DNA of 16,328 nt from a virus. The notes below the pieces were generated by a model. The model did no database searches and was not told the DNA's origin. It saw only the letters and a list, made by a program, of their open reading frames with translations. The stretch lies in IMG/VR virus record IMGVR_UViG_3300031997_001311; one strand, written 5' to 3'. Shown here one piece after another: positions 14,960 to 15,690 of the stretch; position 1 is the stretch's first letter, and each line of letters opens with the position of its first letter. The position numbers and the translations under genes are program-made.

Positions 14960-15690
14960 AAGAAAAACGGCCAACCAGCCCTACACGGCATACCCAGGTC
15001 ACATCCGTTCACTCTGGACCCAGAGCCCCTCTTCCACGGGTTCCCGGAAACCGGTCACCCTGTGCAGTGAGACGGAACTGCACAACCTCACCCCTCGGAC
15101 TGGTCGGCCTGGGGGAGGGGCCCAGATTTGCGCTGGACAGGCCCTACTACCGGCTTTCGCCTTGCCCTTCGGCCGGCCGCCGTCTTGTCCCTCCCGGGAA
15201 CATGTTGCTGCCAACAACATTTGGAGACGATGCAGAGTCGCCGTCGCGTCTCAGGATCCTTGCAGAAGGTCGCATGCGTCCTCGCCGCAAGATACATCGT
15301 CTTCCGTGGACCTGAAGGGAGTCGAACCCTTGTCTTGGAGTATCGGCACCGAGCTTCGTTACGTACGTTTTCCGCTTCGTATTTTCGGGATCTACGCAAC
15401 GGACGAACCTTGATCCCGAGGGCAACGCAGGGTTCTCGTCGGTCGCTACGTTGTCTACGACCCAACCAGCCCGTGTGAATTACACCCAGGCAGCCTACTC
15501 AGGCTCCTCAACTGCTGGATGTTCCCATTAAGCCGCCTTCTGGAGAGAAGGGACGGCCATGGTCGGGAAAGGAATGACTTCCGCTTCGTTCGCGTTTGTC
15601 GTTCGCGGCATTTCTAACCCGGTCACCGCAACCCGGGGTACGCAGCTCAGCGCGTCTTTGCCCCAATCGAAACCGTTACAGGCCCAAAAA
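14960..15690 (-). ncRNA. ~730-nt non-coding region with dense secondary structure (candidate structured RNA, function unknown)
   Basis: No plausible ORF: the six-frame ORFs here are Arg-rich junk. Many perfect hairpins: 15062..15082 (GTGCAG/CTGCAC), 15012..15025, CCGGAAACCGG near 15045..15055, 15386..15418 (CGGGATC/GATCCCG), and an imperfect hairpin near 15204..15226. It also holds a tRNA-like T-arm. Confidence 0.3.
15307..15331 (-). other. tRNA-like 3' fragment (T-arm AAGGG-UUCGACU-CCCUU plus acceptor-like CAGGUCC-A) with no matching 5' half
   Basis: Minus strand reads AAGGGTTCGACTCCCTTCAGGTCCACGG. The T-arm is perfect but no D-arm or anticodon arm and no complementary GGACCTG lie upstream. 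It could be an attP-like tRNA 3' remnant or part of a larger RNA. Confidence 0.3.

Follow-up and report, generated by a model that had tools for sequence, protein, structure and literature searches.

What occupies the longest gene-free stretch of the viral contig IMGVR_UViG_3300031997_001311 (IMG/VR), a sequence of 16,328 nt that we analysed whole and refer to as the window? The gene caller leaves positions 14780..15690 (911 nt) empty, the next-largest gap being 331 nt, and the stretch lies between an HNH endonuclease gene and an MVP-like gene, with tRNA-Pro inside it. A first-pass annotation, made by reading the sequence alone, had described 14960..15690 as a hairpin-dense non-coding region and had proposed three readings: a self-splicing intron or other ribozyme, an attP-type core copied from a host tRNA, or an undescribed structured RNA, perhaps a partner of the MVP-like protein. 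The ARAGORN and Infernal checks that it suggested resolve the region, as both programs call a transfer-messenger RNA (tmRNA). Positions 15304..15685 of the minus strand, on which all window features discussed here lie unless stated, are a full-length, one-piece tmRNA (ssrA) gene borne by a phage, an assignment that we regard as practically certain. For the locus as a whole, that is, a phage tmRNA whose leader contains an HNH gene of the homing type and which is separated from tRNA-Pro by structured, transcribed spacers, we estimate a probability of roughly 0.93. The carrier is a virus-like element, a phage of ~200 kb.

Two programs identify the gene independently. The Rfam tmRNA model RF00023 matches 15304..15685 with 97.6 bits (gathering threshold 47; E = 1.9e-37) over all of its positions (1-374 of 374), and ARAGORN reports a tmRNA at 15306..15685 that encodes the tag ANEAEVIPFPTMAVPSLQKAA with a C-terminal -AA. 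The earlier impression that no canonical tRNA or tmRNA fold could be obtained therefore does not hold. Besides the tmRNA and tRNA-Pro (14883..14959), no Rfam family matches 14780..16120 at E ≤ 1, and no riboswitch lies beside the tmRNA at the same threshold. Under permissive thresholds, applied to the window region and its relatives, a sub-threshold ‘tmRNA_permuted’ match overlaps the T-arm.

The gene is 382 nt long, and the mature RNA probably runs from 15685 to the discriminator A15307, followed by a post-transcriptional CCA. Read directly from the sequence, positions 15307..15331 hold the T-arm AAGGG-UUCGACU-CCCUU, the acceptor 3′ strand CAGGUCC and the discriminator A. This element had been seen at first pass and taken for a T-arm without a 5′ partner; the partner exists, as GGGCCUG at 15679..15685 pairs with CAGGUCC at 15314..15308 over 7 bp, including G15683·U15310, the G3·U70 alanine identity pair. 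A D-region, GGUUUCGA, is readable too, and the canonical T-loop UUCGACU is uninterrupted. Pseudoknot 1 (PK1, 15603..15637) is formed by two interleaved helices, CCCGG 15637..15633 with CCGGG 15622..15618 and UUGCGGUG 15631..15624 with UGCCGCGA 15610..15603, and lies directly upstream of the resume codon. The tag reading frame (15528..15593) begins with the Ala resume codon GCG at 15593, has no start codon, spans 21 codons and closes with an in-frame UAA at 15530..15528 after a C-terminal Ala-Ala (...QKAA). Helix 5 pairs UUCCC 15569..15565 with GGGAA 15526..15522. Downstream of the tag, in the part predicted to form PK2-PK4, hairpins align to the RF00023 model and show compensatory changes. The stem CGGGATC/GATCCCG (15387-15393/15413-15419), listed at first pass among the hairpins of the region, is an internal helix of this tmRNA.

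The window RNA has the sequence-testable defining features of the standard tmRNA family. Like the bacterial one-piece tmRNA (RF00023), it combines a tRNA-like domain, G3·U70 and a T-arm with PK1, an Ala resume codon, a tag ending in -AA, a stop codon beside helix 5 and putative downstream pseudoknot regions. It is unlike bacterial tmRNAs in being carried by a ~200-kb virus-like element and not by a bacterial chromosome, in not encoding CCA, and in its tag, which has a VIPFP-x-MAVPSLQ core and 21 amino acids, where the commonest length in a curated tmRNA database with phage entries is 10 (PMC11915505). Among phages, tmRNA genes have been found in 402 of 18,146 genomes (2.3%; PMC9004378), and huge phages carry tmRNA together with SmpB (PMC7162821). 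The window gene resembles these in being a complete ssrA on a lytic-looking large phage, beside tRNA genes and downstream of a promoter (PMC9004378, PMC7162821, PMC11915505). It is one-piece, unlike the two-piece tmRNA of Melnitz-like marine phages, and it has a tag open reading frame (ORF), unlike the DS6A form, which lacks a coding sequence (PMC11915505); mycobacteriophages, too, are among the known carriers of tmRNA.

The window is 100% identical to a 16.7-kb metagenome contig in ENA (L258). Contig L260, assembled independently from a different sequencing run, agrees with the window at 100% over 15903..14700, which excludes an assembly artefact as the origin of the arrangement. Among larger contigs the nearest relative is L001, a 205.6-kb IMG/VR viral contig with ~97% identity over the MVP-like gene and beyond. 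Pattern scans of viral and metagenome collections yielded seven further distinct tmRNAs, in L001, L093, L210, L027, L206, L170 and L208 (L093, a 212-kb viral contig, equals L213, L027 equals L211, and L170 equals L209 and L212). With the window, these sequences from independent viral and metagenome contigs make up the eight-sequence alignment used below. The lineages are only 65-76% identical in the tmRNA, and relatives score 82.3, 80.6, 79.1, 76.7 and 51 bits against RF00023; the window copy, with all hallmarks intact, has the top score of its family. No relatives of the tmRNA or spacer at the DNA level (roughly ≥65-70% identity) were found among 50,697 catalogued phages, where only tRNA-Pro matched. 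Hits of the pattern scans in the viral collection were mostly chance matches; L025, which matched two patterns, lies in a coding region and was rejected. L205 and L207, from the metagenome scan, lie inside sequence coding for Trp-Thr-Asn-Ala-Cys-Cys-Ser-His-Pro-Leu-Pro-Gly and drew no tmRNA call, and are thus chance matches as well.

Covariation across the eight sequences supports the assigned structure. De novo folding with RNAalifold recovers the tRNA-like domain and a long helix 2, with compensatory changes in 46 of 99 pairs. In a specified structure comprising the acceptor stem, the T-arm, both PK1 helices and helix 5, 96.2% of cells are paired, against at most 57% when the partners are slid by 1-3 columns, and 13 of 30 pairs show compensatory change. 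None of 500 shuffles reached the observed values for four of five measures, and 2 of 500 did so for the count of further pair types. Taken helix by helix, the acceptor stem is paired in 100% of cells (3 of 7 pairs compensatory), the T-stem in 95% (3 of 5) and the PK1 helices in 95% and 92% (2 and 5 compensatory pairs; slid controls ≤57%), while helix 5 is fully paired and invariant. G3·U70 appears as G·U in 6 of the 8 aligned rows and, on direct reading, also in L001 and L093, whose rows MAFFT displaces by one column. The full CCA is encoded only in L093.

The tags of the family, among them ADADVIPFPKMAVPSLQRAA, ADADVIPFPKMAVPSLQREAA, ADANVIPFPTMAVPSLQRAA, AKTNVIPFPIMAPAPMECAA and AKTNVIPFPVKHVESERLAA, are related and share a distinctive pattern, A-x3-4-VIPFP-x-MAVPSLQ-x1-2-AA, which is under codon-level constraint. 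All eight end in AA. Codon differences within the core are mostly synonymous across the relatives (6 synonymous and 0 non-synonymous between the window and L210), and one core Val is written GTC, GTG, GTT and GTA in four sequences. Such a pattern is the signature of a translated, selected peptide, and it argues that the gene is not a decaying relic. A search of 185,579 species-representative genomes with the exact tag pattern gave no tmRNA match; it returned 44 loci, all of them chance occurrences, none of which resembles the tmRNA family by BLAST.

Three members of the wider set depart from the canonical form. The tmRNAs of L170 (2021..2389, minus strand) and L208 (1664..2032, minus strand) have the T-loop GGCAGUA instead of UUCGAnU, the remainder being intact, including G3·U70 and the tag AKTNVIPFPVKHVESERLAA. 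ARAGORN misses both, the Rfam gathering filters miss L170, and L208 reaches its 51 bits only under permissive filters. In L259 (19..385), a contig that bears an identical MVP gene, the 5′ part of the tmRNA is of the L001 type and the 3′ part is different, which leaves the acceptor stem (5′ GGGCCGG, 3′ CUACUCC) with two mismatches; the cause is natural recombination or else chimeric assembly of the metagenome.

Upstream of the tmRNA lies the HNH gene (15691..16053), which encodes a 120-amino-acid protein with an HNH_3 domain and a putative C-terminal helix-turn-helix (HTH), and whose stop codon is 5 nt ahead of the tmRNA 5′ end. The protein matches PF13392 with 36.6 bits (cutoff 24.8) and 12 HNH families in PHROG, down to E = 1.7e-14; its C-terminal third gives weak, sub-cutoff HTH matches (PF02796, 21.1 bits against a cutoff of 23.8). 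The G+C content of the gene is 0.49, that of the window 0.60. The first-pass annotation was right to see here a non-coding locus of structured RNA beside an HNH gene of homing type.

Further upstream, a sigma-70-like promoter of the tmRNA unit is found at 16094..16122 (TTGACA 16122..16117, 17 nt, TATATA 16099..16094, within CCTCTTGACA), its role being inferred from its sequence. An equivalent promoter-like element, 95% identical over 59 nt, stands 30-40 nt upstream of the tmRNA 5′ end in L001, L093, L210 and L259, all of which lack the HNH gene. The string CTCTTGACA has exactly two occurrences in the window, one ahead of the tmRNA unit and the other ahead of the MVP gene. The latter belongs to a promoter-like site at 14828..14855 (TTGACA, 16 nt, TAGACT; 10 of 12 matches in a consensus scan) that marks the end of the RNA-gene unit and is kept in L001, L093 and L259. 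By chance, the pattern CTCTTGACA-N15-19-TANNNT would be expected 0.00 times. The motif (C)CTCTTGACA with a -10-like hexamer recurs at 16117..16125 and 14850..14858 in the window, at 8631..8640 and 9927..9936 in L001, and at 1819..1828 and 3680..3689 in L093, and is probably the phage clade's own promoter consensus.

In the four HNH-free relatives the promoter abuts the tmRNA. The window instead has, between promoter and tmRNA, a cassette of ~410 nt (ribosome-binding site, ORF, stop, TTTTT) in place of 14 nt of leader, and an HNH homologue, 52% identical, sits in the same promoter-to-tmRNA slot of the otherwise different L170 lineage (2441..2800, minus strand; HNH_3 and HTH). Because the HNH gene lies between promoter and tmRNA, its mRNA would also be the 5′ leader of the tmRNA. 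This simple leader insertion polymorphism, along with a divergence between tmRNA and flanks that fits module exchange, indicates that the HNH gene is free-standing and not part of an intron. On these comparisons it is a homing-type endonuclease gene, a mobile insertion in the tmRNA leader, for which homing is predicted.

The segB gene of phage T4 is a free-standing homing endonuclease gene in a phage tRNA region. The window locus is of the same type, a low-GC nuclease gene beside RNA genes with presence/absence polymorphism among near-identical genomes. As is seen with homing endonuclease genes, the flanking marker is sharply more divergent than the rest: the window and L001 are 68-76% identical over the tmRNA (15304..15685 against L001 8703..9066) and ~97% in the flanks. 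Mobile elements have been known from tmRNA genes as group I introns of the T-loop, of which a few carry LAGLIDADG endonucleases (PMC11915505); unlike those, the window nuclease lies outside any intron and outside the T-loop, and is of the HNH type.

A second slot, just 3′ of the tmRNA and ahead of a conserved GTTGGCAG motif, has variable content. It holds an HNH_3 gene in L001 (9080..9565), a weak HNH match in L093 (2280..2651), a DUF559 nuclease-like gene in L206 (6866..7480) and an 83-nt hairpin in the window and L210, and it is empty in L027, L170, L208 and L259. A third slot, between a spacer element that we call B and tRNA-Pro, is filled in L093 by a low-GC HTH ORF (2980..3591). The three fixed slots round the tmRNA are an insertion hot spot for nuclease genes. 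Conversely, the window and L093 have strongly different tmRNAs yet copies of element B that are 99% identical; the RNA-gene modules are reassorted independently.

The spacer of 345 nt between tmRNA and tRNA-Pro (14960..15303) consists of the 83-nt hairpin (hp83), a segment A′ and element B, which we take, from the sequence comparisons, to be exchangeable modules of a transcribed spacer. Stems listed for it at first pass were recovered to within 1 nt: GTGCAG/CTGCAC at 15062-15067/15078-15083, CTCTGG/CCAGAG at 15012-15017/15020-15025, and a ACATGTTG hairpin around 15201-15221. Measured against dinucleotide shuffles, the description of the region as hairpin-dense stands for hp83 (z = -3.66) and for element B (14963..15110; z = -3.63) and fails for segment A′ (15113..15222; z = -0.34), for the spacer as a whole (z = -1.8) and for the tmRNA (z = -1.0). 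At the least, hp83 and B are genuine RNA-level structures. No spacer element matches an Rfam family, even at permissive thresholds.

Directly after the tmRNA 3′ end, hp83 (15223..15305) forms an imperfect hairpin with a minimum free energy (MFE) of -36.3 kcal/mol. L259 lacks it, its tmRNA end running straight into AATGTTGTTGGCAG, and in L210 it follows, at 98% identity, a tmRNA that is itself only ~65% identical to that of the window; by this distribution hp83 is a discrete, lineage-specific module. It has imperfect terminal inverted repeats, GGAAGACGATG and CATCGTCTCC, and relative to the empty site in L259 (~385) it is flanked on both sides by TCCA. In these respects it resembles a miniature inverted-repeat element with a 4-nt duplication that travels with two tmRNA variants. 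Segment A′ has an 8-bp hairpin with GTTGGCAG (15215..15208) followed by a region closed by GGGAGGG...CCCUCCC; it folds no better than its shuffles and is shared only with L259 (96%).

Element B (15109..14969; 141 nt) has a 13-bp closing stem, GGCCGACCAGUCC/GGGCUGGUUGGCC, round three hairpins, and is followed by a U-run, GUUUUUCUU (14968..14960), that abuts the uninterrupted tRNA-Pro (UGG; 14883..14959; ARAGORN; RF00005, 57.1 bits). Its fold is strand-specific (-69.4 kcal/mol on the minus strand against -50.8 on the plus strand, 8 G·U pairs being present), as is that of the copy in L001. The element is conserved at 99% in L093, where it directly follows tRNA-Met, and at 75% in L001, and the closing stem is kept. 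Indels of 1, 1, 1 and 2 nt exclude a coding role. Three pattern scans and a covariance model gave no further copies, the pattern scans returning the same two viral contigs. A 73-amino-acid ORF at 14999..15220 was rejected as non-coding: its composition is rich in Arg, Gly and Pro, no gene is called for it in any of three contigs, and in L001 its frame is disrupted by a frameshift.

Six relatives share another conserved segment of ~80-90 nt, element A, which starts with GTTGGCAG just after the tmRNA or the inserted nuclease gene (L027 1577..1668; L170 1928..2019, minus strand; L206 7483..7574; L208 1571..1662, minus strand; L001 9567..9641; L093 2659..2740). Its core hairpin has an invariant GGUC/GACC closure and 4 compensatory pairs between two clades. 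By eye, a possible pseudoknot can be discerned in it. Element A matches no Rfam family, and its covariance model finds no copies beyond the training lineages and no match in the window at E ≤ 1, the window having only the GTTGGCAG motif. In L093 a tRNA-Met (2739..2811) stands between elements A and B; at that position L001 has a 30-nt hairpin with GGGATTCGAAC, possibly the remnant of a lost tRNA.

Downstream of tRNA-Pro, the MVP-like gene (12077..14779) encodes 900 amino acids with vault repeats and a shoulder domain (PF11978, E = 1.7e-29). Proteins 39-45% identical to it are encoded in 14 further IMG/VR viral contigs and in the ‘uncultured phage’ genomes LR756501 and LR756500 (735 kb and 462 kb), and a preprint describes viral MVPs (10.1101/2023.11.10.566534). 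Also in the gene table of the source contig are a Tad2-like gene (PF11195; 10767..11237), a GDSL lipase (PF00657/PF13472; 4353..4922) and a weak DnaJ match (7942..8361). For the central part of the window the gene caller chooses genes on the minus strand, where long plus-strand ORFs are present as well.

The best-supported reading of the locus is a polycistronic RNA-gene unit, whose transcription, processing, charging and tagging we describe by analogy with the established tmRNA pathway. The promoter at 16122..16094 would drive a long precursor comprising the HNH mRNA, tmRNA, hp83, A′, B and tRNA-Pro, so placed that the HNH gene, inserted in the leader, would borrow the tmRNA promoter. Host RNase P would cleave at the 5′ ends of the tmRNA (15685) and tRNA-Pro (14959), the tmRNA 3′ trailer would be trimmed to A15307, and the host CCA-adding enzyme would supply CCA. 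Host alanyl-tRNA synthetase would charge the tRNA-like domain via G3·U70, and the tmRNA, with SmpB from the host or a phage copy, would enter stalled ribosomes. Translation would resume at GCG 15593, append ANEAEVIPFPTMAVPSLQKAA and terminate at UAA, leaving tagged proteins that end in ...VIPFPTMAVPSLQKAA. Ribosomes would thereby be freed during infection and truncated proteins marked, probably for proteolysis through the C-terminal ‘-AA’. We consider this predicted tagging activity likely. An improbable extension is that the phage relabels stalled chains with a clade-specific tag of its own, so as to use another adaptor or protease or to avoid the host's, that hp83 and B become stable small RNAs through RNase P/Z, and that homing at the three slots keeps the locus variable.

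Several observations weigh against a working tmRNA unit of this kind. CCA is not encoded, as A15307 is followed by CGG, and maturation must therefore be assumed; tmRNA genes without an encoded CCA depend on the CCA-adding enzyme, so that its absence by itself speaks neither for nor against function. The residue preceding the terminal AA is charged in most members (QKAA in the window; QRAA and REAA; but ECAA and RLAA), and since a hydrophobic residue is usual there, protease targeting is uncertain. Expression of the tmRNA might be lowered or changed by the 360-nt HNH ORF that separates it from its promoter. No SmpB appears in the gene table of the 16.7-kb contig, nor among the ten largest of the 42 ORFs (≥90 amino acids) that lie on 8.7 kb of upstream flank in L001. 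The mismatched acceptor of L259 and the odd T-loop of L170 and L208 indicate that not every copy need be functional. The fold itself lends no support, with a nested MFE of z = -1.0 against dinucleotide shuffles, a value expected of a pseudoknotted tmRNA. In the spacer covariation is thin, element B having 2 compensatory pairs in two effectively distinct sequences.

Some of these points would suit a decaying or non-functional tmRNA that was captured from a host and is passively carried: CCA is not encoded, the leader holds the HNH insertion, the nearby sequence scanned for SmpB gave none, the acceptor stem of L259 is mismatched, and the odd T-loop of L170 and L208 escapes ARAGORN and the default Rfam filters. 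We nevertheless find decay improbable, as the window copy is hallmark-complete with the highest score of its family, a dedicated conserved promoter is retained, and 46 compensatory pairs and mainly synonymous tag change have accumulated across lineages that are 65-76% identical, a pattern of purifying selection that would be unexpected for a pseudogene. The attP reading, in which 15307..15331 is the copied 3′ end of a host tRNA or tmRNA gene, draws on the facts that tmRNA genes are frequent integration sites of genomic islands and prophages, that ssrA fragments occur in prophages (PMC11915505, PMC9004378), and that a T-arm with acceptor tail is the type of segment such sites copy. What stands here is a complete 382-nt gene (1-374 of 374 model positions) that has a promoter of its own as well as the 5′ acceptor strand, PK1, the tag ORF and helix 5, and whose structure and tag codons are constrained across eight variants; no integrase or recombinase domain occurs in the 24 genes called on the 16.7-kb contig, nor in the ten largest of the 42 ORFs (≥90 amino acids) on 8.7 kb of upstream flank in L001, and, as no tmRNA with the tag motif turned up in the 185,579 genomes, no donor or target host gene is evident. 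We give an attP origin a negligible probability. A self-splicing intron or ribozyme with HNH as its associated homing endonuclease fares equally poorly. The HNH gene does adjoin a structured RNA directly, and group I introns, some with homing endonuclease genes, are known in tmRNA T-loops, although their endonucleases are LAGLIDADG and not HNH (PMC11915505). In 14780..16120, however, no group I or group II intron or ribozyme family is found at E ≤ 1, the T-loop and tRNA-Pro are uninterrupted, the cassette has no flanking intron RNA, and comparison with the HNH-free relatives reveals a plain leader insertion.

The remaining readings concern the spacer and leave the tmRNA assignment in place. 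Its elements are most likely processing or termination/stability elements of the precursor, and less probably small RNAs derived from the spacer. That the region harbours an undescribed RNA was wrong for its main RNA, which belongs to RF00023, and survives, weakly, for elements of the 345-nt spacer. Element B, and possibly hp83, might be a functional small RNA of this clade released by tRNA-processing enzymes, a proposal that is compatible with the tmRNA reading and that we offer tentatively, as the less probable case. In its favour, both elements have z-scores of about -3.6, B is strand-specific in two lineages, keeps its 13-bp stem and hairpins at 75% identity with compensatory changes, has non-triplet indels and no Rfam family, and would have its ends set by the tRNA 3′ end that precedes it in L093 and the tRNA 5′ end that follows it in the window. 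The E. coli 3′ETS-leuZ is a spacer-derived small RNA of a tRNA operon, and hp83 and B are like it in being structured, non-coding, on the RNA-gene strand and bounded by tRNA or tmRNA processing sites; as candidates for such a role they differ from it in being conserved within one phage clade. Against it, B occurs in three lineages only, with 2 compensatory pairs and no other copies, the stem and U-run could be a leaky terminator or a leader structure, and close relatives freely exchange or lose the modules next to it, as in a dispensable spacer. That B is instead a vault-RNA analogue and the RNA partner of the MVP-like protein is very improbable. Eukaryotic vault RNAs are about 100-150 nt long with paired ends and a 3′ U-run, features that B shares, and in the window, L001 and L259 the distance from B down to the MVP-like gene is ~200 nt. 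The B covariance model, however, matches only the window, L001 and L093 among 26 sources that include 14 other MVP loci, with no copy within 10 kb of MVP in those viral loci or in the 735-kb phage; in L093, B is followed by tRNA-Pro and then other genes, with no MVP match within 5.7 kb downstream; and a tRNA and a promoter separate B from the MVP gene.

An apparently mysterious region is thus resolved to a standard annotation, a phage tmRNA gene with flanking spacers. Current understanding is unchanged, as tmRNAs are established in phages and so are free-standing homing endonucleases in their RNA-gene clusters; the free-standing HNH and DUF559 genes that flank this tmRNA are, by analogy, a variation on the latter theme. 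Mildly unusual are a tag twice the commonest length and a tag family not found in the cellular genomes scanned; modest interest attaches to the conserved tag, to the nuclease hot spot with its three slots, and to the structured modules hp83 and B. The locus is a compact natural example of nuclease-gene invasion round a conserved RNA gene, and empty, HNH-filled and DUF559-filled alleles exist for homing experiments. Its value lies in the correct annotation of a large uncultured phage and in eight aligned tmRNA variants with a distinctive tag, a set that could help to decide whether phage tmRNAs serve plainly to recycle ribosomes or re-target the proteins that they tag.

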